A DNA stretch of 64,000 bases from Candidatus Marinamargulisbacteria bacterium (GTDB lineage Bacteria > Margulisbacteria > Marinamargulisbacteria > UBA817), in the NCBI GenBank assembly GCA_023262965.1, contig JALQXX010000004.1, positions 2,897-66,896 of the forward strand. Direction: 5' to 3'. The notes beneath the pieces were generated by a model. It had not been told where the DNA came from, searched no databases, and saw only the letters and a program-made list of their open reading frames with translations. Positions within the stretch are counted from its first letter, which is position 1; every line of letters starts with the position of its first letter. Positions 1-64,000 of the stretch are shown piece after piece. Position numbers and translations under genes: made by a program.

Positions 1-1444
1 TGGCGCTATTCGCTATATCAACCCCCTCAATAGTACCATTCAAAATAGTTGTGGTGGTGACACTCTCCGCCCCAAGATCATCACTGGTAATGGTCCCATT
101 ATATATATCCTCACTCAAAATGGATTCATTTTTAATATCGGTACTGGTTACCAATTTACCTAAAATATTATCCCAGGTTAATTCATTTTTCAAAACCACC
201 GAATCGGTGTTGGCGAGATCGTTAAAATCACCGGAAAATGCTACCGGCGCCAAGTCACTTGCACGCACATAATTACTCAAATCCAATACATCATTTCCCA
301 CGATTAACGATCCCGATACCCGAAGCCCGCCTTCAACGTTTAATTGAATCCCAGGCTCATTCGTCAAACCACTTATTCCCAACTGGTTTGACGATGCATT
401 CCAAAAAACCGTGTCAATATACCCCAACTCACTGGGGGTTTCAAACAACGCAATTCGCTGTGCTTTACCCGTACCTGTTATAAGATCACCCTCACGATCC
501 GCGATTCGAATGGGTTTATCCACAATCAAAACATCATTGACTTCCTGTAATGTCACAGACCCCACCGACACCGTTTTGGCCCGTATCGATGGTACCGGTA
601 CATTGATATTTCCGATAGACCCCCCAACCTGTAGGCCCTTTGTAATAACCACATCATCCACAATACTAACTATAGGATCCACCATAATTTTACCCCCAAT
701 ACCCTTTATATTGGAATACAACCCCTCTTCTAAATGGCTCATATTAACGGATTTTAAATACCCATTATCGCCCACAATTCGATCGATCTCCGCATCGCTT
801 AACCGCTGATCATCGACATTCACCCACTTTTGGCCGTTATAGCCCAACACCTGACCGGATTCAATCCCTGAAATAGCCACATCATTCAATAACGTCAATG
901 ACGTGGGGCTATTGGTAGTAGTACCCCCAACTGGTACCTGACCCGTATACCCATCACCAGGAGACGTTGGCACCCATTCCCCATTCTTTACAACCAGTAT
1001 ATCCCCTTCACTAACCTGATCAACATCCCGTATCGGAATGCCACGCAATCCCCGTGTACTATGACTGTCATCACTAATACGCGATTTAATCGAATACGGC
1101 TGGCTAACCAGTGCTAAGTTTACCGAATTTCCACCAATGATAACGCCCAATTCCACACCATTTTCATCAAACATATCCACATTTAAATGACGTTGTTGAT
1201 CATCTACACCTTCTAAATTGATATTTAATACCCCATTGTCTATAAGCACCGCATCTGTTTTGGACCAAACCGGATTGACTTGATTGGGATGATTGATTGT
1301 AATAACAATCGAATAGTAGCCATTTAACAACGTGCCATAATCATCGCTTAGTACCAACTGAACATTTAATGCCACGTCATTAATGCCAAACACCGCCATT
1401 GAAAAGCTTGTTATTAATCCAATTACCCAATATCTAAATTTCAT
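1..1444 (-). CDS. Secreted fibre-like repeat protein, N-terminal 481 codons only (C-terminus lies beyond the window edge); paralog of the 58898..63781 fibre
   Basis: Absent from the supplied track because it has no stop in the window. Hand translation of the minus strand from ATG 1444..1442 stays open to base 1. It reads MKFRYWVIGLITSFSMAVFG (signal-like), then ...VAFSGDFNDLANT..., then DIKNESILSE/DIYNGTITSD/DLGAESVTTT (10-residue period). The N-terminal layout and decapeptide match the 1627-aa ORF. Confidence 0.7.
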   Translation of the reverse strand, partial: MKFRYWVIGLITSFSMAVFGINDVALNVQLVLSDDYGTLLNGYYSIVITINHPNQVNPVWSKTDAVLIDNGVLNINLEGVDDQQRHLNVDMFDENGVELGVIIGGNSVNLALVSQPYSIKSRISDDSHSTRGLRGIPIRDVDQVSEGDILVVKNGEWVPTSPGDGYTGQVPVGGTTTNSPTSLTLLNDVAISGIESGQVLGYNGQKWVNVDDQRLSDAEIDRIVGDNGYLKSVNMSHLEEGLYSNIKGIGGKIMVDPIVSIVDDVVITKGLQVGGSIGNINVPVPSIRAKTVSVGSVTLQEVNDVLIVDKPIRIADREGDLITGTGKAQRIALFETPSELGYIDTVFWNASSNQLGISGLTNEPGIQLNVEGGLRVSGSLIVGNDVLDLSNYVRASDLAPVAFSGDFNDLANTDSVVLKNELTWDNILGKLVTSTDIKNESILSEDIYNGTITSDDLGAESVTTTTILNGTIEGVDIANSA

Positions 1445-7615: not shown

Positions 7616-7982
7616 ACCGTTTATAATCGTCATACGACATCAGTGACTGCATATCGTCAGCCACTGTATGTGGGTCGGGCGACACCTTAATTAACCAGCC
7701 ATCTTCATAAGGGGACTGATTAATCTGCTCAGGGGCATTGATTAAATCGGCATTAACCGAAACAACCGTTCCACTAATCGGTGAGTAGATGCCTGACACC
7801 GTTTTTACCGATTCAACCGAACCAAATTCATCCCCTTTTGTCACCAAGGACCCAATTTCTGGCAACTCAACATAAACAATTTCCCCTAATTCATCGACGG
7901 CATATTTTGAAATGCCAATAACAAAACAATCGCCGTCAGCACAAACCCATTCATGATCTTCTGTAAATTGCTGATTTTCCAT
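7599..7982 (-). CDS. gcvH: Glycine cleavage system H protein (lipoyl carrier)
   Basis: 127 aa with the lipoyl-lysine context GSVESVKTVSGIYSPISG and the typical ending YEDGWLIKV. No gcvT or gcvP is in the window. Confidence 0.9.
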   Translation of the reverse strand: MENQQFTEDHEWVCADGDCFVIGISKYAVDELGEIVYVELPEIGSLVTKGDEFGSVESVKTVSGIYSPISGTVVSVNADLINAPEQINQSPYEDGWLIKVSPDPHTVADDMQSLMSYDDYKRFIDTL

Positions 7983-8093
7983 ATATCAAACCTCCAAATA
8001 ATATATCTATTTCTTGTAGAGTATCACTCAACAAAAGCATTCATCAAGATTATCTCCTCAAAATTTTCAGGAAGGCCGCTAATCAATGGCAAA

Positions 8094-8651
8094 ATGGACC
8101 CACCCCCCATTCATTTTAATCGAGTCGTTTACAAATGCGATGTCATTCCGTACCCTATATGTATGAGCAACGAGCCATTCGACCCTGATTCACCATGGCA
8201 TCATTTATTCAAGACCAACGATTATGCCGGTATTATTGAACATGCATCTACAAAAGACTGTAATGATGATACTGAATCCCTGTATTTGGGCATTGCCTAC
8301 TATAAAACATCGCAATGGCACCTGGCCAACACCATTTTTGATGACCTATATGCCCGAAACCCCCATCCTGAAATTGCCGTATATCGGATTATTAGCCGCA
8401 TAAAATACGGGGATATCGACGAAGCGATGCAGGCATATCAGCTATTGTGCGACCAGCAAAATCCCATCATTCACAATTACCTCATCAATCAGAATACCCA
8501 AGCTGCCCTTGAACATATTCTATTGTTAGCGGCAATTCCCTTGAACCTATCGCCCCCCCATACCCAACCAACCGGTTTACTCGATATGCTTCATACATAC
8601 CAATATAACAAATTGGCTCAAAAACTCCTAGCAACACAACCCCATCAATGA
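8094..8651 (+). CDS. Hypothetical protein with TPR-like helical repeats
   Basis: ORF 7953..8651. The 5' part overlaps gcvH, so an internal Met is likelier (8094 or 8163). A TPR-like segment reads LYLGIAYYKTSQWHLANTIFDDLYARNP. Confidence 0.4.
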   Translation: MDPPPIHFNRVVYKCDVIPYPICMSNEPFDPDSPWHHLFKTNDYAGIIEHASTKDCNDDTESLYLGIAYYKTSQWHLANTIFDDLYARNPHPEIAVYRIISRIKYGDIDEAMQAYQLLCDQQNPIIHNYLINQNTQAALEHILLLAAIPLNLSPPHTQPTGLLDMLHTYQYNKLAQKLLATQPHQ

Positions 8652-8655
8652 TATA

Positions 8656-9063
8656 GTGGCAATTATGTCTACTTTAGGATCTTTTTTTATATCTCTTGTT
8701 ATTTTTTTAGGCATTGACCTCCTATGGTTGGGTGTTATTGCCCGTCCCGTTTATCATCATTATATGAAGCATTTACTACGCGATTCCCCCAACTGGCCCG
8801 TTGCATTTCTGTTTTATGCCATATTCGTGTTGGGATTATTCATTATCGCCATTTATCCGGCTCTCGCCAAAAAAGACTTGAATCATGCATTAAAAATGGG
8901 TATTTTTTACGGATTCTTTACTTATATGACCTACGACTTAACGAATTGGGCCGTTTTAAAGGAATGGCCTTGGCAAATTGTTGTTGTTGATATTGCATGG
9001 GGAACAATCCTTGCAATGACTGTTGCCGGACTCAGCACCTTTATTTTATTAAAAATAGGATAA
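8656..9063 (+). CDS. Small integral membrane protein (DUF2177-like)
   Basis: 135 aa with 4 hydrophobic segments. The N-terminal pattern FLGIDLLWLGVIARPVY is recalled from DUF2177-type proteins. Confidence 0.5.
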   Translation: MAIMSTLGSFFISLVIFLGIDLLWLGVIARPVYHHYMKHLLRDSPNWPVAFLFYAIFVLGLFIIAIYPALAKKDLNHALKMGIFYGFFTYMTYDLTNWAVLKEWPWQIVVVDIAWGTILAMTVAGLSTFILLKIG

Positions 9064-9068
9064 CCTGT

Positions 9069-9689
9069 TTATCCCGGTTTATTGCTGCGACGCTGTCGTA
9101 ACGGAATCGCTATCACAATACCCGAAACAATGAGAACGAACCAAACCAGACCGCTGACAAACCACACCCATCGAAAAGACTTCCCATTGGCCCACCCCAC
9201 ATGCCATTCATATACCCGCTGTGCAAACGATATCGGCTGCTGTTTCTGAATAACCCAAGCCTCTTGGTTATCACGGACCCATATAGCCGCATTTGTGGCA
9301 ACCAACAATCGATTGTCATGCCGATATAGATGTGTAATAGGACCGTTTGTAGCCGGTGATTCCTGAAACACCCATCGTATGGGATTTCGCAGTGTCGATA
9401 CAATACCGCCATACCCCAACGCCACATCAATGTGATTGTCGGTGCAGGATACGGCCGTTACCATTCCCAATGGAAACGGTATTTGATCAACAGCTATGGA
9501 TACGCCATACCACGATGTGTTGGTAACCCCTATCCATTCCCCCGTATCACACAAAGCGGTTGCCCGAAATCCATAACGGGCATCGCTACGATACAGAAGG
9601 TACATACCCGTAAGAATGAGTACCACCGTAGGCCCCACCAATATCAGTCCCATATATGTATGCCATTGTCGAATGATCCGTTGCATCAT
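9069..9689 (-). CDS. PepSY-associated TM-helix family membrane protein
   Basis: 206 aa. The N-terminal signature is IRQWHTYMGLILVGPTVVLILTG and the C-terminal signature is VYEWHVGW...FRWVWFVSGLVWFVLIVSG. A loop of about 130 aa separates them. Confidence 0.6.
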   Translation of the reverse strand: MMQRIIRQWHTYMGLILVGPTVVLILTGMYLLYRSDARYGFRATALCDTGEWIGVTNTSWYGVSIAVDQIPFPLGMVTAVSCTDNHIDVALGYGGIVSTLRNPIRWVFQESPATNGPITHLYRHDNRLLVATNAAIWVRDNQEAWVIQKQQPISFAQRVYEWHVGWANGKSFRWVWFVSGLVWFVLIVSGIVIAIPLRQRRSNKPG

Positions 9690-9718
9690 CTGTTATGATA
9701 CGGTATACACGCTCATTT

Positions 9719-10240
9719 TCACAGTAATGTGTGAAGCGTTACCAGCAACCGTCGAACGCCATTGGCTATCGCAATGGCGGATACCGTTGCTCCCGAAACC
9801 GGGGTAATATCCTGATATACCCGAATCGGATCGGTAACCCGTCGCTGTCTAAATTGCTTTAAAAAACGTTTTTTACGAACCTCATCCCCATAGGGCTCAC
9901 GGTACGTCATTACCACAATCCCCTTAACAAATAAATCCGATGTGAATGCAACAAAAAATGTAATCGGCTCGTGTTTTCCAAGTTCATTTGTAACAACCCC
10001 ATATCCCTGAAGGGTATCTTCCTTGTGAAAGGTATAGACGGTAATCTCATCATTCGGAATGGCCATATGCAACGTCGATTCCATGGCCTCCCTTTGCTCC
10101 GCTGAAATGGGTATGCGTCGAGAATCCACCTGATGCAATGGAAACACCTGCTGAAAGGCCTCGTCTTGAGTTGAATACACGGTCTCCATATAGCCGTATA
10201 CAATGCTCTTGACTAAAAGCACAATCAGCAAAACACGCAT
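9719..10240 (-). CDS. Exported FMN-binding domain protein with an ApbE-type flavinylation motif
   Basis: 173 aa with the N-terminal signal MRVLLIVLLVKSIVYG. The C-terminal DITPVSGATVSA carries the S-G-A-T flavinylation-site pattern of FMN_bind domains (NqrC/RnfG-like). Confidence 0.6.
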   Translation of the reverse strand: MRVLLIVLLVKSIVYGYMETVYSTQDEAFQQVFPLHQVDSRRIPISAEQREAMESTLHMAIPNDEITVYTFHKEDTLQGYGVVTNELGKHEPITFFVAFTSDLFVKGIVVMTYREPYGDEVRKKRFLKQFRQRRVTDPIRVYQDITPVSGATVSAIAIANGVRRLLVTLHTLL

Positions 10241-30825: not shown

Positions 30826-32061
30826 GTGGAATCAAAAAACATTGCTATTGTTGGAAGCGGAATATCGGGCTTAAGTGCGGCTTACTTATTAAGTCGTCGT
30901 CACACGGTAACGTTATTTGAATCCAGTGATCGCTTAGGTGGTCACGCCAACACCGTATCCACCCCCTGCGGACAACATATTGACACCGGATTTGTTGTGT
31001 TTAATAAAAAAAATTACCCATATTTTTGCAAATTATTAAACGAGCTGAATGTCCCGATTGTTGAGTCAGATATGAGTTTTGCATATGTTGATCCCATTCA
31101 AAATCACTACTATAGTAGCGATATCCCCTGGGGTATTTTTAGTAAAAAATCAACCCTTTTTTCACCAAGTTTTTATAAATTCATATTTAGCATTGCGTCG
31201 TTCAATAAAGAATCGCTGCGTGATTTACCAAAGCTGTCTGATAAAGAATCGCTCAATGATTATCTTCAACGAAAAGCCTATTCGCCACGTCTCATTCGTG
31301 AATATGTACTGCCTATGGGAGCGGCTATTTGGTCCACCTCAGAAAAAAATATTGGCCAATTCCCTGCAAAAACGTTTTTCAACTTTTGGAATCATCATTG
31401 TTTGCTACAAACCACCAATCGACCCAAATGGGCCACCATAAAAAACGGCAGTCAAACCTACATCAATGCATTAATCAATGCCATCTCAATCACGGTTTAT
31501 TGCAATCAAGCCATACGCCGTATTCATCGCCATCCAACCCATGTTACCGTAGAATCCTATCATGGCCGCTACGATTTTGACTGCGTTGTTATTGCAACTC
31601 ACGCGGATCAAGCATTACGACTATTGGATTCCCCCACACCAATGGAAAAAATATTATTAAGCCCCTGGGTATATACCAACAATCAAATTATTCTTCACTC
31701 CGATTGTCGTGTTGCCCCGCCTGCAAAATCGGCTTGGGCGTCATGGATATATACCCGTACATGCAATACCGTTATGCAGGCATCGTACTTTATGAATCGA
31801 TTGCAAAAATTAAAGACCCCCACCCCATTTTTTGTCACCTTAAATAGCCAGCTACCGATTCATTCTGAAAAAATTATATATACAACACGATATGAACACC
31901 CCATGATGACACAGTCATCTGTAGAGACACAAACCAATCTACATGAATTAAATGGGGTAAAAAACACCTACTTTTGTGGAAGCTATTTTGGCAATGGTTT
32001 TCACGAAGACGGTATCCGATCTGCTGTGATGGTTGCCAATCAATTGGGATGTCCGTTTTAA
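30826..32061 (+). CDS. FAD-dependent oxidoreductase (amine-oxidase / desaturase-like)
   Basis: 411 aa with a GTG start, the dinucleotide fold IAIVGSGISGLSAAYLL and GGHANT. It is the first gene of the lipid-modification cluster. Confidence 0.8.
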   Translation: MESKNIAIVGSGISGLSAAYLLSRRHTVTLFESSDRLGGHANTVSTPCGQHIDTGFVVFNKKNYPYFCKLLNELNVPIVESDMSFAYVDPIQNHYYSSDIPWGIFSKKSTLFSPSFYKFIFSIASFNKESLRDLPKLSDKESLNDYLQRKAYSPRLIREYVLPMGAAIWSTSEKNIGQFPAKTFFNFWNHHCLLQTTNRPKWATIKNGSQTYINALINAISITVYCNQAIRRIHRHPTHVTVESYHGRYDFDCVVIATHADQALRLLDSPTPMEKILLSPWVYTNNQIILHSDCRVAPPAKSAWASWIYTRTCNTVMQASYFMNRLQKLKTPTPFFVTLNSQLPIHSEKIIYTTRYEHPMMTQSSVETQTNLHELNGVKNTYFCGSYFGNGFHEDGIRSAVMVANQLGCPF

Positions 32062-33998
32062 CATCCTTTATTGCAAAAGGCAACACCTCTCATACGCGAT
32101 TCCACCCGATTAAACGATCCTTTTCGTATGACATATGTTATATGCTGGTACACTTAAATAAAGCCGACGATCTCAATCGCATGTGGGGATTTAAGTGGGA
32201 CCGATTTTGGGGTTTTTCAATACATACCACCGACTATATTAATCACAGCACAGTACCGCTTCATTCAAAGGCAATGGCCTTTATAAATCATCATTGTCCA
32301 ACGATTGCTGTGACAGATGTGTATATGTTAACCATCCCCTCATTTTTTAATCGCCGATTTAACCCCGTATCGTTCATCTATTATTTGGATTCAAGCCATA
32401 CGATTTGTGCTATTGTCGCTGAAGTTCACAATACATTCTCAGAAAAACACATGTATTTACTATCTGACCCCGTTATCAAAAACAATGATATTCATTTTGC
32501 AACAGAAAAAGTATTCCACGTATCCCCATTTTTTGAGCGGAATGGTTATTATCGGTTTATTTTTTCTAAAAATATGTATACCATTAACATATCAATTGAC
32601 TACTATAGAGAGGATACATTAATGTTTAATGCCAAACTACATACATCAAGCCATCCACTACACCGTTTATCCATGTTCCAAACCGGAGGGTATTTAGCCA
32701 AAAGTGCTATAGCTACATTCCCTCGCATTCTTATTCAAGCATTCCGTCTTAAATTAAAGCACAAATTGCATCATTATCGAAAACCGCGTTTGAATCATCC
32801 ATTATCGTCCCCACAACGCCCCCCCAATTTTCTGGAGCGCTATTGCATAAAACGCGTTTTGAATACCTTGAGTACAATCACGTTGGGCGAAATAACACTT
32901 CACTTGCCCGATGGCCAAGTCCATGTTTTTGGAACAGGTATTCCCTATGGAACACTCCATATTCATGATTATCGCGCGTTTTTACGGATTGCCTTTAAGG
33001 GTGATATTGGATTTGCCAATGCCTATATGTATGGCGAATTAACCGCACCGGACCTTGAATCATTATTTGAAATATTGATATTGAATGAAAGTATAATAAA
33101 AAAATCATCAAATAAAAATATAGTTTACACAATAATTCGTAGATTTTCTCATTATATTCGGCGCAACACCATTCAAAACTCACGAAAAAATATTATTGAC
33201 CATTACGATTTAGGAAACGCATTTTTCTCATTATTTTTAGATACCAACCGGGTGTACTCATCGGCAATTTTTGAAAATGAAACCCAATCGTTAGCCGATG
33301 CCCAACAGTATAAAATGGATGCCATTCTTGATCGGTGTGACGTACAAAAGCATCATCATTTATTGGAAATAGGCTCCGGCTGGGGTGCCCTAGCCATTCG
33401 TGCTGCCGAAAAACGGGGGTGTCGTGTTACCACCATCACCATCAGTCAAGAACAATATGAATTCGTAAAAAAAGAAATTAATAAACGTCATTTAGATCAT
33501 ATGATTGAAGTTAAGTTGATGGATTATCGCTTGTTGAATGGTCAATTTGATCGAATTGTATCGGTGGAGATGCTGGAGGCCGTTGGACACGATTTTTTAC
33601 CCACATTTTTTAACCAATGTTATAAATTACTGCGTCCCAAGGGAAAGGCCGCCTACCAGTGCATTATGATTCCCGAGAGTCGTTATGACGACTATAGAAA
33701 CTCTCAAGATTTTATTCAAAAATATATTTTTCCTGGGGGACATCTTCCCACATTATCCCACATTCAATCGGTTATTCAATCGGCGGGATTTCGTTGGGTA
33801 CGTGTTGACACCATTACCAATCACTATGTACGCACATTGCAGGAATGGGCAAACCGTTTTATAGCAAACAAAGACGCCATTCACGAACATGGATTTTCGG
33901 AAACATTCTTTAATACATGGGTATATTATTTTTACTACTGCTCGGCTGGCTTCAAGCAAGATTATATTCATAATCATCAGTTTGTAATTGAAAAATGA
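32049..33998 (+). CDS. Fusion protein: DUF1365 domain plus cyclopropane-fatty-acyl-phospholipid-synthase-like SAM methyltransferase
   Basis: A single ORF. The N-terminal half, SFIAKGNTSHTRFHPIKRSFSYDICYMLVHLNKADDL, is DUF1365-like. The C-terminal half has CFAS motifs (HYDLGNAFFSLFLD, LLEIGSGWGALAI, IVSVEMLEAVGH, YIFPGGHLP). The start is taken at ATG 32049; the track ORF starts at 31974. Confidence 0.8.
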   Translation: MSVLTSFIAKGNTSHTRFHPIKRSFSYDICYMLVHLNKADDLNRMWGFKWDRFWGFSIHTTDYINHSTVPLHSKAMAFINHHCPTIAVTDVYMLTIPSFFNRRFNPVSFIYYLDSSHTICAIVAEVHNTFSEKHMYLLSDPVIKNNDIHFATEKVFHVSPFFERNGYYRFIFSKNMYTINISIDYYREDTLMFNAKLHTSSHPLHRLSMFQTGGYLAKSAIATFPRILIQAFRLKLKHKLHHYRKPRLNHPLSSPQRPPNFLERYCIKRVLNTLSTITLGEITLHLPDGQVHVFGTGIPYGTLHIHDYRAFLRIAFKGDIGFANAYMYGELTAPDLESLFEILILNESIIKKSSNKNIVYTIIRRFSHYIRRNTIQNSRKNIIDHYDLGNAFFSLFLDTNRVYSSAIFENETQSLADAQQYKMDAILDRCDVQKHHHLLEIGSGWGALAIRAAEKRGCRVTTITISQEQYEFVKKEINKRHLDHMIEVKLMDYRLLNGQFDRIVSVEMLEAVGHDFLPTFFNQCYKLLRPKGKAAYQCIMIPESRYDDYRNSQDFIQKYIFPGGHLPTLSHIQSVIQSAGFRWVRVDTITNHYVRTLQEWANRFIANKDAIHEHGFSETFFNTWVYYFYYCSAGFKQDYIHNHQFVIEK

Positions 33999-52878: not shown

Positions 52879-53466
52879 TTGCTGCCATTATGGGTTGCAT
52901 CATCATCACCACGACGACATGACTTACTCAGTCAATACCGTGTCCCTTTTATTGCCATTCCCAATCTGTTAGCGGTTGAACCCTCCCCAGAGTACCCCGA
53001 ATGCGGGATTCGTTATGCCGTTCGCTGCACAAAACAGAAAGTAACGGCATCGTATTCGGGCTATTCGGGTCTTATTATGGGCGTGGATACCGTTGTTGAA
53101 TGGCAGGGTCGCATTCTTGGAAAACCCGCGGACTCGTCCCAGGCCCTTTACCAGTTACAGGCGTTTATGGGAACAACCCATCGGGTGATATCAACCTGTG
53201 TTTTATGGGACACCCATCGTAATATATGGCTGTATTGTGTGGATTACGCTATTGTTTCAGTATCACTGGTTCCCGAATCCATACTAATTGACTACATTCA
53301 TCGTTATCCTGTATTGGATAAAGCCGGTGGATATGGTATTCAAGACAATCCCTCCTTTATTCACATTGCCTGGGGGGACCGCGCCACCATCATGGGGCTC
53401 CCCTTACGTCGATTATTAAAATTATTATATGGTTATGGTATAGTCAACGCATGGCAGTATCCGTAA
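52879..53466 (+). CDS. maf: Maf-like nucleoside triphosphate pyrophosphatase
   Basis: 195 aa with a TTG start, LWVASSSPRRHDLL and KAGGYGIQD. Confidence 0.85.
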   Translation: MLPLWVASSSPRRHDLLSQYRVPFIAIPNLLAVEPSPEYPECGIRYAVRCTKQKVTASYSGYSGLIMGVDTVVEWQGRILGKPADSSQALYQLQAFMGTTHRVISTCVLWDTHRNIWLYCVDYAIVSVSLVPESILIDYIHRYPVLDKAGGYGIQDNPSFIHIAWGDRATIMGLPLRRLLKLLYGYGIVNAWQYP

Positions 53467-54473
53467 CGCGTTTTATTCATAGTAATATTGGGATTGATCT
53501 TGGAACCGCCAATACACTGGTATACAAACATAATTACGGTATCATAATACGGGAACCCAGCGTTGTCGCCTTGAATCAACACAATCAAAAAGTGTTGGCT
53601 ATTGGTGAAAAAGCCTACGATATGGTTGGCAAAACACCCACATCCATTGTAGCCATTCGCCCTCTTCGAGATGGGGTCATTTCGGACTATCAAACAACCC
53701 AGGCCATGCTACAGCATTTTTTACGCTTAACCAACCCACGGTTTTATCAACGCATCCAATTGGTTGTTGGCATTCCGTATGGGATTACATCCGTTGAAAA
53801 ACGTGCCGTACGTGACGCGGCTCACATGGCGGGTGCCCACCGGTGTTTTTTAATCGATGAACCGTTAGCTGCCGCAATTGGTGCCGGACATGATATTTTT
53901 GAGCCCATGGGACGCTTAATTGTGGATATTGGTGGCGGAACCACCGAAGTCGCGGTTATTTCAATGGGGAGTATTGTATTATCCGAGTCGATCCGTATTG
54001 CGGGGGATAAAATGGACGAATCCATTATTCAGCATTGCCGAAAACATTATAACTTGCTTATTAGCGAACGATGTGCCGAACGCATTAAATGGACCATTGG
54101 TTCGGCTTTATCTTTGCAAAACGAAAAAAATACCGACGTATCTGGCCGTGATTTATTATCCGGACTACCCCGAACCTTTTCCATTTCATCAATGGAAATC
54201 CGCGATGCCATTGATGGCGCCATTCACGCCATTCTTGCGGCTATTCATCGCACATTGGAATCAACCCCGCCCGAACTATCTGCGGATATTTACAAAAATG
54301 GGATTACCTTAACCGGTGGGGGGGCCTTACTTCGAGGGCTATCCGATCATATTCAAAATCATATCCATATTCCCGTTCGTATTGCCAATGATCCGCTATC
54401 ATGCGTTGCATTAGGCACCGGAACCGTTTTGGGCCAACTCGATCGCTATTTGAAACACCAAATTATTCAGTAG
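53451..54473 (+). CDS. mreB: Rod-shape-determining actin homolog MreB
   Basis: 340 aa with IGIDLGTANTLVY, VDIGGGTTEVAVIS and GITLTGGGALLRGL. It overlaps maf by 16 nt. Confidence 0.95.
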   Translation: MAVSVTRFIHSNIGIDLGTANTLVYKHNYGIIIREPSVVALNQHNQKVLAIGEKAYDMVGKTPTSIVAIRPLRDGVISDYQTTQAMLQHFLRLTNPRFYQRIQLVVGIPYGITSVEKRAVRDAAHMAGAHRCFLIDEPLAAAIGAGHDIFEPMGRLIVDIGGGTTEVAVISMGSIVLSESIRIAGDKMDESIIQHCRKHYNLLISERCAERIKWTIGSALSLQNEKNTDVSGRDLLSGLPRTFSISSMEIRDAIDGAIHAILAAIHRTLESTPPELSADIYKNGITLTGGGALLRGLSDHIQNHIHIPVRIANDPLSCVALGTGTVLGQLDRYLKHQIIQ

Positions 54474-56261: not shown

Positions 56262-57479
56262 TTGGAGAAAAAAATAAGGTCAATAAACATTCAACTATCA
56301 CAAAGAAGCGGCCCCCAACTAGAGACACTCCGTAATCAATCACCTGCTGCAAGCGGCCGCGCTACATCCGCTAATCGGCGTTCCCCATCCCCCAACAGAA
56401 CGCTGATACCCACATCCGACTTAATCCAATCCGTTACGACCGAACCGGGCTTTTCCGAGACAGAAAAAATTAAAGCGGTGGATTTAATCAGTCCACCCGG
56501 CTCGTGTGACATGGTCAACGAAGCCACCATTGCAGCACTCACAGGGGTATTAAAGAGCGGTATTCCTTCCGATAAAAAAGTGGCGGTACATATATTATTA
56601 AAATTACTATATTTGTCAAAAAAAAATGATGAGTTATTATTGTGGTACAAATCCAATATTTTAACAGATGCGAATACCCATTTGATCCCCCTTTTGAATA
56701 ATTCAGAGCCGGATCTTCTGGCAGATATTACCCGTCTCATGATGACCCTCATGACAAAAAATCCCTCCAGTCACGAAAAACTCCTATCCAATGGGTTGAC
56801 TGATGCACTCAACACCATGTTTGAGGATGAACAACGCATAAGCAGTGCTATTAAAATAGCGGTTTTTACATCGGCATTAAATGCGGCGAACACCATTCTA
56901 AAAAAAGATGACACAATTTTAAAAATATTTTACCACGCCATACCCCCTTCAACCGTTTCATGTGATGCAGACACACCATCAATCGCCAGTATTGTGATAT
57001 TAGGCAACCTGTGCATGCATCCAGACGTCGCTAAAAAAATTTGTTCCTTGGGGGGCATTGAACTATTGACATGTCTCATCAACAATCAGCAAAATGCCTA
57101 TGCGCAATTCAATGCATTGATCGCATTGAATAGCATCATCGTATCGGGATCACCGGATCATGCCATTGTGATTCAAAAGGCCATTGACTGGAATGCGATC
57201 CCCCGCTTATTCAGCAATTTAAATCAACACGTTTTAGAAAGCCCTATGAAACATGAAAAATCCCCCGCGCACTTGATACAGCATGCGCTTCATGCGTTAA
57301 ACACCATTGTACGCAATGCCAGCGACGATATTACGTCAAGCATAACAGCAATTACCCCACTTCGGAATTGTCTGATTAACTACAGCGCCCATGAATCTGC
57401 GATTTATTGTGCAGCCGCTAAGGATCTACTGGTATCCTTAAACCTGCTGCCATCGCATGTATCATCCCAACAATTGTAG
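56262..57479 (+). CDS. Armadillo/HEAT-like alpha-solenoid protein with a disordered S/P/R-rich N-terminus
   Basis: 405 aa with a TTG start. The N-terminal region of about 70 aa is low complexity (SGPQLETLRNQSPAASGRATSANRRSPSPNR). ARM-like units follow, for example ILGNLCMHPDVAKKICSLGGIELLTCLINNQQNAYAQFNALIALNSII. Confidence 0.55.
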   Translation: MEKKIRSINIQLSQRSGPQLETLRNQSPAASGRATSANRRSPSPNRTLIPTSDLIQSVTTEPGFSETEKIKAVDLISPPGSCDMVNEATIAALTGVLKSGIPSDKKVAVHILLKLLYLSKKNDELLLWYKSNILTDANTHLIPLLNNSEPDLLADITRLMMTLMTKNPSSHEKLLSNGLTDALNTMFEDEQRISSAIKIAVFTSALNAANTILKKDDTILKIFYHAIPPSTVSCDADTPSIASIVILGNLCMHPDVAKKICSLGGIELLTCLINNQQNAYAQFNALIALNSIIVSGSPDHAIVIQKAIDWNAIPRLFSNLNQHVLESPMKHEKSPAHLIQHALHALNTIVRNASDDITSSITAITPLRNCLINYSAHESAIYCAAAKDLLVSLNLLPSHVSSQQL

Positions 57480-57551: not shown

Positions 57552-57917
57552 ATGCGATATCTGTATTGGTGTATTATTGGCCTAAGTACCTGCCTGTATG
57601 GCATTAATTTTGACATCCAAGCCATTCGGGTTGGCCCCAATCCATTGATTCAATCCCGTGATGGCTTGGCGATTAATTATGTCGCGACCATGCCCCATCA
57701 ATCCCATTATTACTTGATTTCCCCCACCGGGGCCATTGTGTGGCAGCACCAGTACGAGGCCAATACCCCCCGTGTGAGCGCTGCGGGGGAATGCCAATTC
57801 AACCTAATCCCCAATCATGTTCTTCAGGAATTACCCCCGCAATTGTATATTTTGATGAGTCAATTTATAACAGAATCCAAGACCATTCGCCATAAACAAT
57901 ATGTCATTCTTAAGTAA
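57552..57917 (+). CDS. Small secreted protein, FlgD-Ig / T9SS-sorting-domain-like beta-sandwich
   Basis: The start is taken at MRYLYWCIIGLSTCLYG (signal-like). VGPNPL....LAINYVATMPHQSHYYLISPTGAIVW resembles the pNPf...i.Y.l......l.i.d..G..v pattern. It overlaps the next gene by 17 nt. Confidence 0.4.
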   Translation: MRYLYWCIIGLSTCLYGINFDIQAIRVGPNPLIQSRDGLAINYVATMPHQSHYYLISPTGAIVWQHQYEANTPRVSAAGECQFNLIPNHVLQELPPQLYILMSQFITESKTIRHKQYVILK

Positions 57918-58818
57918 GATTGGCGGCATTCTACTCATCAGTATGGCCGGCTGGGGCTTAACCACTCAAGACACCCCCCTGTTCAACCCCCATCTATCGG
58001 CCACCAACTTGGGGTTGGGGCAATCCGCAACCGCATCCCAAGAAGGCATCGAATTTATGCTTCAAAATCCCGCCAGCATTACCGATCAGCAAAGCATCGC
58101 CTTTCAGGCCAGTCGGTATTTGGGAATTGACTACAACGCCATGGCCTTTACATTTCCCATATATGGGATCAATCTGGGCATCCATTATTTGGGCGCTTAC
58201 CTACCCAATATTCAACGGTCCATTCGATCCGATAATGATGTGATTGTGAATCTGGACGATACGGTTCCTTATGAATTTCATCATGTATCGGTGTGCTTGG
58301 CCAAACGTTTTTGGGGCGTTTATGTTGGCGTCGGGGCCAATTATCAAATCCTTCGGTTAGATGATCGTCAATTAAACGCACTCAAACAATTTGCTGGCAT
58401 ACAGGTATCCTTATTACCAGGACTCACCGCTGGCGCGTCCATTCAAAATTTTTCCAACACCCCCTCATCCGGAAACGCACTTCAATCACCCGATCCCATA
58501 ACCGCGCTGGGGGTATCCGTAGACATATCCCCTCAAACACGGATGAATATTGCGATTATTCACAATAAAAATACAATTGCCACACACCCCACCTTGCATT
58601 ACGGTATTTCGCATTATATTACCGACTATTTGCCCATTCGATTGGGATTGGATCACAATCGATTCAGTGCCGGCCTTGGATTTAGCATGGAGCCCCTTCA
58701 TATTAACGTCGGTTGGGCCCAATCCATTGATGCCATCACCGAAAATCAATGGATGATGGGCATTGTATACGATATATCCACCACACCATTGTCTAAAAAA
58801 TTCATTCAACAACCATAG
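57901..58818 (+). CDS. Outer-membrane beta-barrel candidate (PorV/PorQ/FadL-like)
   Basis: 305 aa with a signal peptide (GGILLISMAGWG). The N-terminal LGLGQSATAS...MLQNPASI matches the G.a..A...d......NPA motif of PorV/PorQ-type barrels. Many amphipathic strands follow. Confidence 0.45.
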   Translation: MSFLSKIGGILLISMAGWGLTTQDTPLFNPHLSATNLGLGQSATASQEGIEFMLQNPASITDQQSIAFQASRYLGIDYNAMAFTFPIYGINLGIHYLGAYLPNIQRSIRSDNDVIVNLDDTVPYEFHHVSVCLAKRFWGVYVGVGANYQILRLDDRQLNALKQFAGIQVSLLPGLTAGASIQNFSNTPSSGNALQSPDPITALGVSVDISPQTRMNIAIIHNKNTIATHPTLHYGISHYITDYLPIRLGLDHNRFSAGLGFSMEPLHINVGWAQSIDAITENQWMMGIVYDISTTPLSKKFIQQP

Positions 58819-58897: not shown

Positions 58898-61800
58898 ATG
58901 AACCAAAATAAAATTGTATTGCTGGTAATCCTGACCCTACTATCTTTTGGTATTTGGAGCGCGTCGCCATCAACCATGGTGGTTCAGGCCCGTGTCTTTG
59001 TGAATGGGGTTAGCAATTATACGGGGACACTGGATATGATTATTGGTATTTACCATCCAGACAACGACACCGATTCACTTTGGTCCGAGAAGCAATCCCG
59101 TATTCCAATTACCAATGGCCAATTTTCCACCGTTATCGGCCAAACAAACCCCATTGACCCAGCCATTTTTGATAATCTGGATTTGCGTATTGGGTTTGCC
59201 CCTTACCAAAACAATCAACCATTAGCCCCCACATTTATCGACTTAAAGTCAACCCCATACGCCTTTCATAGCGAACGCGCCAATTATGCCAATCGATTGG
59301 CCAATGAAAGCCTACTTAAATTGGATGAAACAAACCTGCGTGTGGGTATTAATACGGAAGACCCCGCGTATACCCTGGATGTGAATGGCACGGTGAATGC
59401 CACCGAATTTATTGGGGATGGATCCCAACTGACCAATATTCAAATATCCGATGAACGGCTTGTTTGGTCGCAATCCGATACCCCTGGCGATATTTATTAC
59501 GATGGCGGCAATGTCGGGATTAATACCGACACGCCCTCGGCGTTTTTAGAGGTTAGTGGGAATGCGGTTATTAGCGGCAATTTAACCGTTTTGGGAACCC
59601 TCAATGCCACGTATTTAAAAGGCGATGGATCCTTTATTACCAATTTAAATGCCAATGAATTGTCATCTGGAACACTGCATAGCGATCGATTGGTTGGCGA
59701 CTACCCCAATATTACTGGTCTGGGAACCATCACCAGCGGAACATGGCAAGCAACGCGCATTGACAATGCGTATATTGATCCCACATTAACCTTAGATGGC
59801 GCCACATTGAAAGGGGAAAATTTTGTATCTGGCAATATAACGCTTTTGGGGTCAACCATTATTACGGGCAATCATACCTTAGCGATTGAATCGCCCTCAT
59901 GGAATATTGAGGCCGACGGCCGTTTAACCGTAGCTTCCTTGCGCGTGGGTAAAACCACCCTATCAACCAATGGCATTCACAGTGAGTCGAGCAATGGTTT
60001 TTCGATATCCACTGGGGAATCCATTGTGTTTCTATCACCTACTGGATCAATTGGTATCAATACACGGGCGCCTGCTGCTGAATTTCATGTCAATGGGGGG
60101 CTTTTATTGGGGGATTCGGCCGTTGAATCCAATGGAATGATTCGATTCAAGGAGAACCAATTTCAGGGGTTTCGAAACAATGAATGGGTTCAATTGGATT
60201 ATGTCGCTGATTTTGATCCGCATGCGCTACATGCCGAAGGTGATAAAACTAAAAATGTCGTGTACGTAACATCGAAAGGCAATGTCGGTATTGGGGGCAT
60301 TTCACCCGACAATATTACCGATCATCTAACCACCAGCGGAAACGTTGTTTTCAAAGGCTATTCGCTGGGCAGTGAATTGCCGGATTTATCGGTCCGTGGA
60401 ACCGGAACACGGTTAATATGGTATCCCAAAAAAACCGCCTTTCGTGCCGGATTTGCCGATACGGATGAATGGGATGATGCCAATATTGGGATTAACAGTG
60501 TGGTATTTGGGCATTCTGGAAAAGCGGATGCCGAAAACACAACCATTATTGGCGGACAATCCAATACCAATAGCGGGAAATCCAGCGTTATTGTTGGTGG
60601 ATCGTCCAATACCATTCGCGACGGCGTCACATTTTCGACGATTATTGGCGGGGGGTCTTCTTCGGAGGGCGGGAATACCATTGAATCCGGCAATTTTAGC
60701 ACCATTGTTTCGGGACATTCGAATACAATACGTGGCAATTACGCCACAATACTGGGCGGTAGTAACAACACCGTTAATGCAGACTATAGTGTTGCGATGG
60801 GAAGCAACATTACCATTGCCCATCCCGGAACCATTATTTTTTCGGATGGACAAGAGAAACGTGAATCAACCAGCCCTTTTCAATTTTTAATTTTTGCCGA
60901 GGGCAATGTCGGTATCAATCGATTGCCCCAACCCGATGTCACCCTATCCGTATACGGCCCCGTTGAAGCCACGTATTTTATTGGAGATGGTAGTCAATTA
61001 ACCAATATTTCTGCCATCCAGCTTGACGGGCATAGTACATCGTTACATTCTACACCTGGACATATTTACGTAAGCGACAATGAGGGTTATTTACCCGAGG
61101 GCAGTGTATCGGGACTCTCCATTAAAGACGAAAGCATTACCGCCGCAGACATTCAAAATGAATCGATATCCGGCGATAAATTAGTGCCGTATGCCATTAC
61201 ACGATCCAAGATTCAAGACGGCGCTATTACAGCCGAAAAAATCGCCAACGATGCTATTACAACCGAAAAAATCCAAAATAATGCCATTACATCGGAGCAT
61301 ATCCGGGATGGTAGCATTGTATCAAAAAATATCGCCGATAATGCCGTTACCACCCGTCATATTGTAAACAAGGCCGTCACCAATGAAAAGCTGGCCTTAA
61401 ATACCATTGATTCGAGTCGAATTGTGGATGAGAGCATTACCTCAAGCGATATTGCCGTTGGCGCCATTACCAGTGTCAACATTGCGGTAAACGCTATTCA
61501 ATCGCATCATATTGCTAGCGAAACCGTTGGCCCCGATAATATTGCCAACAACGCTATTCAAATGCAACACATTAGCGAACGTGCGATTGAAAATCGTCAT
61601 CTGGCCGATGGTAGCGTCGATACAACGCACATTGTGAATGAATCCATTACATCGGAGCATATTGCCCCCAATGCCATTCAGGGCATTCACATTGACGACG
61701 CTACCATCACAAATGATCGCATTGCCGATAACAGCATTGTGAGTGCCAAAATTGCAGAAAATGCCATTGAGGGTACGCATTTGCCCGATAACATTATTGA

Positions 61801-63781
61801 AGCACGTCACGTGTCGGATAGTGCCATTGTAGAACGCCACATTGCTTCTGGAACAATCGACGGCACGCGATTAGCAGACAATGCGATTGTACCCGCAAAT
61901 ATCGCCGACAAGGCCATTACTTCTGACAAATTAGCATTGACCGCCCCCCTGATTACATCAGAGCATATTATTGATGGCACCATTACGAGCGCCGATCTTG
62001 CGGATGGCGCGATTGAAGCAATTAATATTGCGGATAATAGCATTGGGGGAGATGCCATTGCATTAAATAGCTTGTCCGGATCACACATTCAAGAGAATGC
62101 CATAACCAGTGATAAAATTGAAGATTTATCGATTACAGCCGACGATATTGCCGATGACGCCATCGATGCCGCTATTGCTGTTGCTGTTGGGACCATCACC
62201 TCCGATAAAATCCTAGACGGCACCATTAAAAACGAGGATATTGCCAATGATGCTATTGATTCGCGTTTGATTGCCGATGGATCCATACCCTGGGAAAAAT
62301 TAACCACCGATCCACTCCCCGTGGATCGTATTGCCCCCAATTCCATACCGGGAACCGCCCTACAAGACGGGTCCATTGATGGCAGTAAAATCACCGACGA
62401 ATCGATTACATCCGATAAATTAGCCGATGGGTCTATTTCGGTCAATGCCTTGGATGGCGTCTTAAGTGTCGATAAAGGAGGTACCGGCTTAACCAATTTG
62501 GATGGATTAGCCAACGCCATTTTGTACGGCAAATCACTGACAACCGGCGAAACCATCATTGCCGGCGATAGTTCCTATATGTACTGGGATGACACCAACC
62601 ATTTTATGGGAATCAATACCAAAAACCCCCTAGCCACACTTCATGTTAAGGGCAATATTTTAACGGAAAATGGCGGCGTTTATTTTGGTAATCTCAGTCA
62701 ATCCATTAGCTTTGGTGAAAATGATAACGGCGAGGGATTTATTATTATTGGCCCTAATCTTGACGCTACATCCCCCACCGTTACAGCGGCTACAGACCCT
62801 TTAGGCACCCTTAAAGCCAAAAAAATATATGTATCCGACCAATTGGGAATTGGTACATCCGACCCTAAAAATAGCTTGGATATTGGTGGGGAAAACGCCA
62901 GTATGGCCATTGGATCGGGTTTTGCAGGACAAAAAAGAGCCCCTAATAATGGATTGATTGTAGAAGGCTTTGTAGGAATCGGCACCGCCGAACCTCAATC
63001 CCAATTGGATGTAAATGGCAGCATTTATGCCAAAACCATTGTCGGCACATCCACCGACCCTGATGGCGGCATTGGCATACACGGAATCGGTGGGGCTATT
63101 GGCATTCAATCCCTTGGCGCACAAACGGGCATTACTGTGAATGCCAGTCAGATTGGCATTCGTGCTGAATCCGATGAAATTGGGATTCAAAGTACCATTA
63201 CTAATGTCACATCCCCTTCAAAAGGGGTTCATGCCACATTAAAAAATGGGGATACCACACTGGTTGAAGGGGTTGTTGGGTATCTCGAAAATGGCATTGC
63301 GGCATCTATTTATGGAACCTCACAATCATCGAACGATGGAAATTGGGCTGGTTATTTTGATGGACCGGTTTTTTTATCGGACAAATTGGGTATTGGACTC
63401 CGTGCGGATGAATCCCCTCAGGCCGCATTACATGTTAAAGGCAACAGTATTATTGAGGGACCAATCTATACGTCGTATGGCACATTGGAGGCATCAAGCA
63501 CCCCTATTGACTGGAATGCTCAAAGCAAATATCACATCAGCAATTGCCGCACTGAAAACAACGTCACATTCACCGATCCAGAAAATGACGGCATGTATGT
63601 GTTCACTATTTTAGTAACCAGTACCAATGACGCCTGTAAAATTACATTCCCCGACACCGTAAAGTGGGAAAAAGGTATAAAACCCGGTACATTACCCACA
63701 AAAACACATGCTTTTTCATTACTTGCTCATGTTCACGATACCGGAACCGATTATTACGCCATTGGCCCTGTGGAATTTTAA
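58898..63781 (+). CDS. Giant secreted modular fibre protein (1627 aa)
   Basis: Signal peptide MNQNKIVLLVILTLLSFGIWSAS. At least 8 copies of a VGI(N/G)T..P...L.V.G module, two of them followed by FIGDGSQLTNI. A G/N/T-rich head-like block spans residues 531-650, and about 44 decapeptide repeats span residues 741-1187. The WAGYFDGPVFL motif is present. The C-terminal domain of about 105 aa holds the protein's only two Cys. Confidence 0.85.
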   Translation: MNQNKIVLLVILTLLSFGIWSASPSTMVVQARVFVNGVSNYTGTLDMIIGIYHPDNDTDSLWSEKQSRIPITNGQFSTVIGQTNPIDPAIFDNLDLRIGFAPYQNNQPLAPTFIDLKSTPYAFHSERANYANRLANESLLKLDETNLRVGINTEDPAYTLDVNGTVNATEFIGDGSQLTNIQISDERLVWSQSDTPGDIYYDGGNVGINTDTPSAFLEVSGNAVISGNLTVLGTLNATYLKGDGSFITNLNANELSSGTLHSDRLVGDYPNITGLGTITSGTWQATRIDNAYIDPTLTLDGATLKGENFVSGNITLLGSTIITGNHTLAIESPSWNIEADGRLTVASLRVGKTTLSTNGIHSESSNGFSISTGESIVFLSPTGSIGINTRAPAAEFHVNGGLLLGDSAVESNGMIRFKENQFQGFRNNEWVQLDYVADFDPHALHAEGDKTKNVVYVTSKGNVGIGGISPDNITDHLTTSGNVVFKGYSLGSELPDLSVRGTGTRLIWYPKKTAFRAGFADTDEWDDANIGINSVVFGHSGKADAENTTIIGGQSNTNSGKSSVIVGGSSNTIRDGVTFSTIIGGGSSSEGGNTIESGNFSTIVSGHSNTIRGNYATILGGSNNTVNADYSVAMGSNITIAHPGTIIFSDGQEKRESTSPFQFLIFAEGNVGINRLPQPDVTLSVYGPVEATYFIGDGSQLTNISAIQLDGHSTSLHSTPGHIYVSDNEGYLPEGSVSGLSIKDESITAADIQNESISGDKLVPYAITRSKIQDGAITAEKIANDAITTEKIQNNAITSEHIRDGSIVSKNIADNAVTTRHIVNKAVTNEKLALNTIDSSRIVDESITSSDIAVGAITSVNIAVNAIQSHHIASETVGPDNIANNAIQMQHISERAIENRHLADGSVDTTHIVNESITSEHIAPNAIQGIHIDDATITNDRIADNSIVSAKIAENAIEGTHLPDNIIEARHVSDSAIVERHIASGTIDGTRLADNAIVPANIADKAITSDKLALTAPLITSEHIIDGTITSADLADGAIEAINIADNSIGGDAIALNSLSGSHIQENAITSDKIEDLSITADDIADDAIDAAIAVAVGTITSDKILDGTIKNEDIANDAIDSRLIADGSIPWEKLTTDPLPVDRIAPNSIPGTALQDGSIDGSKITDESITSDKLADGSISVNALDGVLSVDKGGTGLTNLDGLANAILYGKSLTTGETIIAGDSSYMYWDDTNHFMGINTKNPLATLHVKGNILTENGGVYFGNLSQSISFGENDNGEGFIIIGPNLDATSPTVTAATDPLGTLKAKKIYVSDQLGIGTSDPKNSLDIGGENASMAIGSGFAGQKRAPNNGLIVEGFVGIGTAEPQSQLDVNGSIYAKTIVGTSTDPDGGIGIHGIGGAIGIQSLGAQTGITVNASQIGIRAESDEIGIQSTITNVTSPSKGVHATLKNGDTTLVEGVVGYLENGIAASIYGTSQSSNDGNWAGYFDGPVFLSDKLGIGLRADESPQAALHVKGNSIIEGPIYTSYGTLEASSTPIDWNAQSKYHISNCRTENNVTFTDPENDGMYVFTILVTSTNDACKITFPDTVKWEKGIKPGTLPTKTHAFSLLAHVHDTGTDYYAIGPVEF
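61118..62458 (+). repeat. Array of about 44 consecutive 30-bp (decapeptide) coding repeats inside the fibre gene
   Basis: In blocks of ten the protein aligns without indels from residue 741 to 1014: KIQDGAITAE/KIANDAITTE/KIQNNAITSE/HIRDGSIVSK/NIADNAVTTR/HIVNKAVTNE and so on. After a small register shift the period continues to about residue 1187. The DNA units are diverged at synonymous sites. Confidence 0.9.
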
Positions 63782-63783
63782 TT

Positions 63784-64000
63784 ATGAATCGATTGACCCC
63801 ATACACACAATCCATGTGGCGCACTATTTTAGTGGGATTGATCGCCCTAACGATTCCTATTGTTGCCAGTGCCCCCAATCGTATGGCTATGGATGCCTTT
63901 ATTGTAACAACCGATACAGCCACTGGTAACCCCGCCCCGCTACGGGGAACCCTCGCCATTATGTTTGAATTAATTACACCCGATGAAACCTCGGTTTTTA
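63784..64000 (+). CDS. Start of a third fibre-family gene (truncated by the window end)
   Basis: ATG lies 2 nt after the fibre stop (TAATTATG). The reading frame stays open to the window end: MNRLTPYTQSMWRTILVGLIALTIPIVASA (signal), then MAMDAFIVTTDTATGNPAPLRGTLAIMFELITPDETSVF. The post-signal layout matches the other two copies. Confidence 0.55.
   Translation, partial: MNRLTPYTQSMWRTILVGLIALTIPIVASAPNRMAMDAFIVTTDTATGNPAPLRGTLAIMFELITPDETSVF

Follow-up and report, generated by a model that had tools for sequence, protein, structure and literature searches.

What is a protein with the modules of a phage tail fiber doing among the housekeeping genes of a bacterial chromosome, and why does its shaft carry a regular ladder of histidines? 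The question is raised by a stretch of 64,000 nucleotides (the window, in what follows) from a Candidatus Marinamargulisbacteria bacterium (contig JALQXX010000004.1, positions 2,897 to 66,896). An open reading frame (ORF) of 1,627 amino acids (aa) in this window encodes a fiber-like protein whose central part is a long array of ten-residue repeats. The initial annotation, made from the sequence letters, had recognized these decapeptides and proposed that the His at their first position stack as rings of three along the axis of a trimer and bind metal, as in the tips of T4-type long tail fibers. Our results make it likely that the array is the rod of a chromosomal, secreted, most likely homotrimeric cell-surface fiber composed of phage-tail-fiber-type modules, and that the His ladder is something other than an axial metal site. 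The elements on which this reading is based are the following (residues 741 and 1187 are at bases 61118 and 62458, respectively).

58898..63781, forward strand: fiber-protein ORF of 1,627 aa, supported by the ORF list, 13 full-length orthologs and PHROG tail-fiber matches
61091..62458, forward strand: whole shaft, residues 732-1187, with 92 pentads (46 decapeptides) and a hydrophobic residue at every fifth position
61118..61945, forward strand: perfect-register stretch, residues 741-1016, 27.5 decapeptides without an indel in 13 orthologs
61358..61840, forward strand: His zone, residues 821-981, with nine invariant position-1 His among invariant Asn, Lys and Asp
61946..61951, forward strand: two-residue insertion at about residues 1017-1018, giving a 12-residue unit (1011-1022), without counterpart in 13 of 13 orthologs
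62174..62206, forward strand: 11-residue unit, residues 1093-1103, the second register shift (10 residues in 7 orthologs, among them the five whose run of pentads is unbroken)

Printed in blocks of ten from residue 741, the protein keeps a perfect register down to about residue 1016, as had been claimed for it. The unit in the shaft can be written as [KHNRD]-I-x-[DN]-x-[AST]-I-x-x-x. Over 27 units, position 1 is occupied by His (11), Lys (6), Asn (4), Arg (3), Asp (2) and Ser (1), and the two hydrophobic positions by Ile (21), Leu (5) and Val (1) at position 2 and by Ile (23) and Val (4) at position 7. Position 4 is frequently Asp (12) or Asn (6) and position 6 nearly always small (Ala 15, Ser 7, Thr 4). 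The hydrophobic beat spans residues 732-1185 as runs of 57+16+19 = 92 pentads, the register moving by +2 and then by +1 after residue 1016. The array had been described as about 44 uninterrupted decapeptides; the array itself is real, but there are 46 of them and they are unbroken only over 741-1016, with two shifts along the shaft. A beat of five residues instead of a heptad is evident both in the hydrophobicity spectrum, which has a peak at a period of 5 residues (z 9.9), another at 2.5 (z 20.6) and nothing at 3.5, 3.6 or 7, and in the autocorrelation of I/L/V/M/F, which is 0.18-0.20 at lags 5, 10 and so on up to 30 against about 0.03 at the others. The shaft is strongly acidic (73 D+E versus 29 K+R) and has 14 His per chain.

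The periodicity is a feature of the protein rather than of the DNA, since the 30-nt units have a mean pairwise identity of 46% and Tandem Repeats Finder detects only 2.2 copies, at 61226-61291. Those of the 13 full-length orthologs (1,613-1,663 aa, 40-54% identity) that carry a name are listed as Candidatus Margulisbacteria, Marinamargulisbacteria or Margulisiibacteriota. In the alignment, residues 731-1016 are free of indels in all 13, and the comparison of repeat number, which had been suggested as a check, gave about 91 pentads in every one, with five (P0004, P0006, P0007, P0009 and P0012) running through 91 pentads (455 residues) without one break. Column entropy is lowest at the core positions 2 and 7 (0.23 and 0.25), and position 1 (0.38) is near the core Ile in this respect. 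It rises to 0.96 at position 6 and to 1.4-1.9 at positions 3, 4, 5, 8 and 10; positions 5 and 10 (the i-2 positions) are among the highest, with 1.69 and 1.93, and their residues include E, K, R and Y. The residue at position 1 is specific to each unit across the orthologs, reading S D K K K K N N H K R D N H N H N H H H R K H H H K N along the shaft. At identical residues the codon is reused in 48% of cases between the window gene and the genes for P0009 and P0011, and the His codons (CAT/CAC) differ among them. Synonymous sites being saturated and His codons variable, the pattern is maintained by selection at the protein level, which together with the lack of indels agrees with the earlier claim that the period is selected and not a product of slippage. 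Antisense to the repeat region lie several ORFs of 93-156 aa (61442-62559, reverse strand); they are taken to be by-products of a periodic, stop-poor sequence, not genes.

The His had been located at residues 801, 821, 871, 891, 901, 911, 921, 931, 961, 971 and 981, all of them correctly. Nine of these 11 (821, 871, 891, 911, 921, 931, 961, 971 and 981) are invariant in the 14 orthologous sequences, and so are the Asn, Lys and Asp that lie between them at 831, 851, 861, 881 and 951; the loss of His in orthologs, named by the initial annotation as an outcome that would speak against its proposal, did not occur. His 801 and 901 are not conserved and are Asn in most orthologs, and His 1114 is kept in 13 of 14 sequences. 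Over 861-911 Asn and His alternate at position 1, and in the three most divergent orthologs the His run extends to 891-1001. An I, L or V comes directly after 13 of the 14 His of residues 741-1187, in local contexts such as AIQSH-HIA, AIENR-HLA, IIEAR-HVS and AIVER-HIA. There is no HxH motif in the shaft (732-1187). The protein has a single HxH, which is found in the tip domain (residues 1611-1613) and is not conserved.

This repeat is by no means restricted to the orthologs. The repeat region is matched by phrog_892 (E 1.2e-57, nine stretches), phrog_13518 (9e-56) and phrog_28766 (9e-32), and a tblastn search with the repeat matched 89 phage records. Among the listed matches, which include cyanophages and phages of Arthrobacter, Paracoccus, Alteromonas and others, the repeat falls in tail-fiber, minor-tail, host-specificity J and hyaluronidase genes and in hypothetical proteins. 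When residues 741-1015 were used as query for an exhaustive HMMER search of 1.84 billion representatives (clusters at 50% identity), we retrieved 22,915 clusters at E ≤ 1e-3, 6,869 at E ≤ 1e-10 and 636 at E ≤ 1e-30, and the largest carriers are proteins of 4,000-6,000 aa with more than 300 pentads. The repeat region matches no Pfam family at a threshold as permissive as E ≤ 10 (a scan of the whole protein at E ≤ 1 likewise gave none for it), and NCBIfam has none either. We found no account in the literature joining 'tail fibre' with 'decapeptide repeat', and the passages of the RBPseg atlas retrieved by search term do not mention a decapeptide repeat. The repeat is a very common module that is without a Pfam model or a solved structure.

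A way to approach the structural meaning of each position is to compare the units of these other carriers, for which some 5,000-10,000 units were taken from about 150-170 proteins (P0020-P0250). The consensus over approximately 10,000 units is K-[IL]-A-[DA]-[GN]-[AST]-[IV]-T-[ATS]-x, and position 1 is Lys in 44%, His in 9% and Glu, Asp or Gln in about 24% of them. His tends to come in clusters, the probability that a His unit is followed by another being 0.27 versus a base rate of 0.05 (five-fold). P0196, for instance, has about 26 consecutive 'HISANSIQSQ'-type units, and a similar run is found in P0024. The His ladder is a recurrent flavor of a common module and not unique to the protein studied here. 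In this wider family the position-1 His co-varies with Arg, Gln or Glu at position 8 and with His, Arg or Gln at position 10 of the preceding unit, a pattern that looks like a local polar network and not like a buried site. Apart from adjacent positions, coupling is strongest for the i,i+3 pairs 8:1' and 3:6, which would indicate tight turns at positions 9-10 and 4-5, the latter fitting the D-N/D-G preference there. Mean coupling goes up at separation 5. Opposite charges at position 1 of consecutive units are more frequent than expected (1,450 observed versus 1,141 expected over about 9,400 units, z 9.2), like charges are enriched at lag 2, and Asp4 pairs with Lys1 of the next unit (z 6.7, same units). 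Such a contact between consecutive units cannot form within one chain with a turn of 10 residues.

The modules flanking the shaft are informative about the kind of protein to which it belongs, and we distinguished the following.

58898..58972, forward strand: probable Sec signal peptide (MNQNKIVLLVILTLLSFGIWSASPS), read from the sequence
60512..60841, forward strand: YadA/UspA1-head-like glycine-rich repeats, residues 539-648, from the ortholog profile
62468..62488, forward strand: D-K-G-G-T-G motif closing the shaft, with G1194, G1195 and G1197 invariant
63476..63778, forward strand: C-terminal beta-sandwich tip domain, residues about 1527-1627, modeled by AF2 (AlphaFold2) with a predicted local distance difference test (pLDDT) score of 78-90

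With a probable Sec signal peptide at its N terminus, the ORF product is supported as a secreted, phage-tail-fiber-like mosaic fiber protein. Compared with PDB sequences, the ortholog profile matched a MYRF/endosialidase-type motif at residues 188-242 (E 9.5e-5), the UspA1 head (3PR7) at residues 539-638 (E 7.7e-6) and, over short stretches, the Bdellovibrio proteins Bd2133 (8OND, residues 379-411, E 3e-5) and Bd3182 (8OJN, E 0.007). The UspA1-head-like region has in addition a weak match to LbR_Ice_bind of Pfam. All of these (UspA1 head, Bd2133, Bd3182 and MYRF/endosialidase) are modules of obligate-trimer types, and it is from them, together with the trimeric head decoration protein of phage LME-1 (see below), that we infer the trimeric state. 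The AF2 model of residues 1188-1627 is confident only over the last 100 residues or so (pLDDT 78-90), the tip domain, which has two invariant Cys (1550 and 1580); phrog_9017 also matches the C-terminal tip region. Against BFVD this model gave 121 matches at E ≤ 1e-3, and those named among the top 50 are mostly phage tail-fiber proteins, themselves predicted models and not solved structures; the same search of the PDB gave nothing significant. The Pfam scan of the protein found no match to the Peptidase_S74 chaperone and, at E ≤ 1, no family of YadA-type C-terminal membrane anchors, the C terminus being modeled as a soluble beta-sandwich.

The genomic context had to be considered as well, including two further genes that carry or accompany the fiber modules.

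63784..64000, forward strand: tandem start of a second fiber gene, which exits the window
1..1444, reverse strand: signal-peptide protein cut by the left window edge, at least 481 aa visible, adjoining glyQ

The second fiber gene begins 3 bases beyond the stop codon of the first. The N terminus of its product is 39% identical to the product of the 1,727-aa gene located 3' of the ortholog in locus L001. In the two orthologous loci that were read, the very next gene after the fiber gene is again a giant one (1,727-1,787 aa), with purB behind it, and in both genomes the pair of fiber genes is kept beside purB, mnmA and a GT41 glycosyltransferase. In the reverse-strand protein at the left edge, the final 50 or so visible residues (bases 1 to about 150) are the same decapeptide as in the main protein. 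It had been called a distant paralog on the basis of bases 1-130; the decapeptide is indeed there, but the term is generous, as BLASTP similarity between the two proteins is confined to the repeat. There are at least three repeat-bearing genes, at separate sites of the window. The window otherwise contains housekeeping genes, namely glyQ/glyS (glyQS), clpB, thiC, tkt (transketolase), hemB, maf and mreB, and also encodes a fusion protein with a cyclopropane-fatty-acyl-phospholipid synthase domain and a SPOR protein. No phage gene was found among the 19 ORFs scanned in these 64 kb, and no tRNA genes were found in the window. The gene is chromosomal and does not belong to a prophage.

How, then, should the conserved His of the shaft be understood? 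In the axial arrangement, the position-1 His of three chains would form rings that bind metal, like the HxH motifs of T4 gp37, in which both His face the axis and six His bind one ion. The needle of gp37, with its iron sites, is likewise a trimeric phage-type fiber along which His recur at regular intervals, and the proposal can draw on the nine invariant His, on their clustering, on the recurrence of His-rich runs in unrelated proteins (the roughly 26 units of P0196) and on the acidic shaft, which would favor cation binding generally. In contrast to gp37, however, the shaft is devoid of HxH and its His are 10 residues apart, each preceding a buried Ile directly, so that in a strand they would point away from the core. 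Position 1 is usually Lys in the family and often Glu, Asp or Gln; it must be solvent-accessible, because such residues cannot sit on a three-fold axis. The alternation of position-1 charges between consecutive units resembles a surface salt-bridge ladder, and the co-variation of His with Gln, Glu or Arg at i-3 and with Arg or His at i-1 argues in the same direction. T4-like rings of three His are therefore not supported and seem to us quite improbable. A somewhat better case, still an unlikely one, can be made for a divergent pentapeptide repeat, i.e., a single-chain, right-handed, four-sided beta-helix in which two decapeptides (20 residues) make one turn and two straight His ladders run on opposite faces of the surface. 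The hydrophobic period of five residues is shared with pentapeptide repeat proteins (the Rfr fold, Np275/276 and the synthetic beta1 solenoids), and over residues 978-1180 the profile weakly matches 4YFO and 4YC5 (synthetic solenoids, E 2e-4) and Np275/276 (E 0.014). Units two (or six) apart share more identical residues than do units at lag 1 or 3 (p 6e-10), and the alternation of Asn and His over 861-911 would give one ladder of each. The single-chain AF2 model of residues 681-1260 (16-sequence alignment) has regular strands with a 10-residue period, at low confidence (mean pLDDT 48.7, and 35-50 in the array core), and Foldseek returned only insignificant leucine-rich repeat or solenoid matches for it in the PDB. 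None of the pentapeptide models of Pfam gives a match, not even at E ≤ 10, and the profile of the perfect-register stretch (741-1010) matches no pentapeptide structure. The fold needs a small, buried residue at i-2 (A[D/N]LXX), whereas here the two pentads of a unit are unequal and positions 5 and 10 are variable and often Glu, Lys or Arg. The same-sign charges at lag 2 would stack at 4.8 A in a 20-residue coil, which is why the contact between consecutive units argues against it; together with the i-2 positions this contact speaks against the Rfr fold. Moreover, the carriers of the repeat are trimeric fiber proteins. On these grounds the evidence favors a multi-chain rod with one pentad per layer over a single-chain helix of the pentapeptide type.

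It could also be thought that the gene is simply the tail-fiber gene of a prophage or tailocin, given the strong PHROG tail-fiber matches, the tblastn matches to phage genes and the resemblance of the tip-domain model to phage tail-fiber models. We reject this origin because of the gene context and give it hardly any credence: among the 19 ORFs scanned in the 64-kb window, housekeeping genes are numerous and phage genes absent, the tandem fiber genes beside purB, mnmA and the GT41 glycosyltransferase are kept in the two genomes looked up, and the repeat-bearing genes lie at separate sites. The protein has a signal peptide at its N terminus, and a signal peptide is not expected on a phage tail fiber. 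The identification as a fiber shaft stands, supported by phrog_892, the 89 phage records, the trimeric flanking modules and the tip model, whereas its attribution to a phage tail fiber as such does not, the housekeeping context making it a chromosomal, probably cell-surface, fiber. For this secreted and most likely homotrimeric fiber, with its His off the axis, we consider the balance of evidence favorable, although several observations weigh against it. Nine strictly conserved His are also what a functional metal site would show. The excess of identity at lag 2 would also be expected from a structural period of 20 residues, and the solenoid matches over 978-1180 point the same way. A beta-helix and a hairpin prism are not told apart by the coupling statistics, on which duplications of blocks may also have a confounding effect. 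The fold of the rod and the place of position 1 are themselves inferred from sequence, with no solved structure over the repeat. Finally, the MAT N-terminal domain (NCBIfam NF053851), a mark of the Bdellovibrio fibers with which we compare the protein below, scores 23.7 bits against a cutoff of 60 (E 3.3e-5) and is detected at E ≤ 0.01 in only one of 14 orthologs. As a separate observation, units two apart are more alike than neighbors, a hint of a two-unit superperiod that no model fully explains.

If the protein is a trimeric surface fiber, it might work like the MAT fibers of Bdellovibrio or like trimeric adhesins. The N-terminal part would stay at the cell, the rigid rod of fixed length would act as a spacer and the small, disulfide-bearing beta-sandwich at the tip would be the putative binding module. 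In the rod, the decapeptide K/H-I-A-D-N-A-I-T-S-x can be regarded as two unequal half-units of five residues, each contributing one buried Ile or Val (positions 2 and 7), with tight turns predicted at 4-5 and 9-10. Three chains would then come together in a slender beta rod in which each pentad takes up one layer of 4.8 A. Its architecture would be that of a three-stranded beta-helix or of a three-ribbon prism around a core of Ile, and 92 pentads would extend for approximately 44 nm. Position 1, polar and next to the core Ile, would lie at the edge or interface of the rod, where the position-1 side chains of successive units may meet. We read the His ladder accordingly as a polar zipper of His, Asn, Arg and Lys along this edge or interface, with the His probably on the surface of the rod and not on a metal-binding axis. 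It would amount to a frozen patch of His-type units, with Asn, His, Arg and Lys stacked along each edge. The zipper may stiffen or tune the middle of the rod; as the shaft is strongly acidic, titration with pH or binding of ions at the surface is possible. A bolder version holds that the decapeptide is a structurally new kind of rod, of three chains with five residues and one core Ile per face, in which ion- or pH-responsive Asn, His and Lys at the edge set the stiffness of a 44-nm spacer. This we put forward tentatively, and consider it doubtful.

Among known systems, the shaft is closest in sequence to phage tail-fiber, minor-tail and host-specificity proteins, which share the 10-residue unit with Ile or Val at positions 2 and 7. 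Examples are PHROG 892, 13518 and 28766, the cyanopodoviruses P-GSP1 and NATL2A-133, Arthrobacter phage Mimi and Paracoccus phage Pkon1, with hidden Markov model E-values down to 1e-57 and tblastn identities of 27-34% over most of the shaft. The phage carriers are virion proteins without a signal peptide, while the protein described here is chromosomal and secreted and has a fixed number of about 91 pentads. PDB searches retrieved no solved shaft structure for these phage carriers. By analogy, the nearest functional counterparts appear to be the MAT fibers of Bdellovibrio bacteriovorus. According to the passages of the MAT paper retrieved by search term, these are cell-encoded surface fibers of phage-like trimeric modules, which occur as several paralogs in a genome and have tips that can be interchanged (Caulton et al., 2024; PMC10769870). 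The same passages do not mention a decapeptide repeat (PMC10769870). The likeness lies in the cellular origin, in the phage-like trimeric modules and in the profile matches to Bd2133 and Bd3182. The S74 chaperone domain has no match here and the phylum is another, and since the MAT N-terminal domain is below its cutoff we do not class the protein as a MAT. Trimeric autotransporter adhesins share the YadA-like head repeats, but the YadA-type anchor was not found in our protein.

Beyond these fibers, PDB sequence and profile searches found no structure over the repeat, the two exceptions at the sequence level being the repeats of DotG/IcmE and the head decoration protein of the Legionella phage LME-1. 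DotG/IcmE also has a 10-residue period with hydrophobic residues five apart and a similar hydrophobic-x-D-x-small-hydrophobic-[ST] pattern, and matched with E 1.5e-6 (full profile) and 0.003 (repeat profile). Its motif is however [KR]-x-A-G-[FY]-[STND]-x-x-x-[LI], in which our repeat has Ala, Ser or Thr instead of Gly and Ile or Val instead of the aromatic residue, and DotG/IcmE is a VirB10-like secretion-system protein, while there is no VirB10 or type IV secretion system context here. The copy number of the DotG repeat is reported as variable, its AlphaFold model is not a pentapeptide helix and its fold is unsettled (bioRxiv 10.1101/2023.03.22.533729). The LME-1 protein orf16 (9EG4 chain H, NIQDGAVTANKLATDSVTTVKILDDNVTSDKI, residues 96-133) is the sole PDB sequence with the true repeat (E 1e-4 to 1e-3). 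It has about four units and no His, unlike the main shaft. It forms a trimer that projects from the capsid, and its distal parts are absent from the model (PMC12407071).

The repeat thus ranks among the commonest building blocks of phage and bacterial fibers and yet has neither a Pfam family nor a solved structure. The ortholog set is an unusually clean specimen of it, with about 91 pentads free of indels, unit-specific residues frozen at 40-54% identity and a ladder of conserved His and Asn. It therefore lends itself well to work on the fold and on the role of the polar edge residues. What is notable is the exact conservation of both rod length and polar ladder in a cellular surface protein of a little-known phylum. 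Phage-type fibers on the chromosomes of relatives of Margulisbacteria, to our knowledge a lineage without known cultured members, extend MAT-like cellular fibers beyond Bdellovibrio. If the His ladder did respond to ions or pH, it would offer a new principle for designing protein rods that can be tuned.

Some features of the window deserve a brief mention. Upstream of the fiber gene there is a gene for a 405-aa protein with a weak armadillo-repeat (ARMC5) match (56262-57479, forward strand) and another for a 305-aa signal-peptide protein with no family (57901-58818, forward strand). Synteny with the orthologous loci is not kept on this side, as neither gene has a counterpart there and the GT41 glycosyltransferase is found in their place. 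The fusion protein mentioned above is encoded by an ORF at 31974-33998 (forward strand), which joins a DUF1365 domain and the cyclopropane-fatty-acyl-phospholipid synthase domain in a single chain. MreB (53451-54470, forward strand) has at most about 55% identity to the GTDB species representatives found by pattern scan, and its best matches are spread over many phyla, which fits a poorly sampled lineage.

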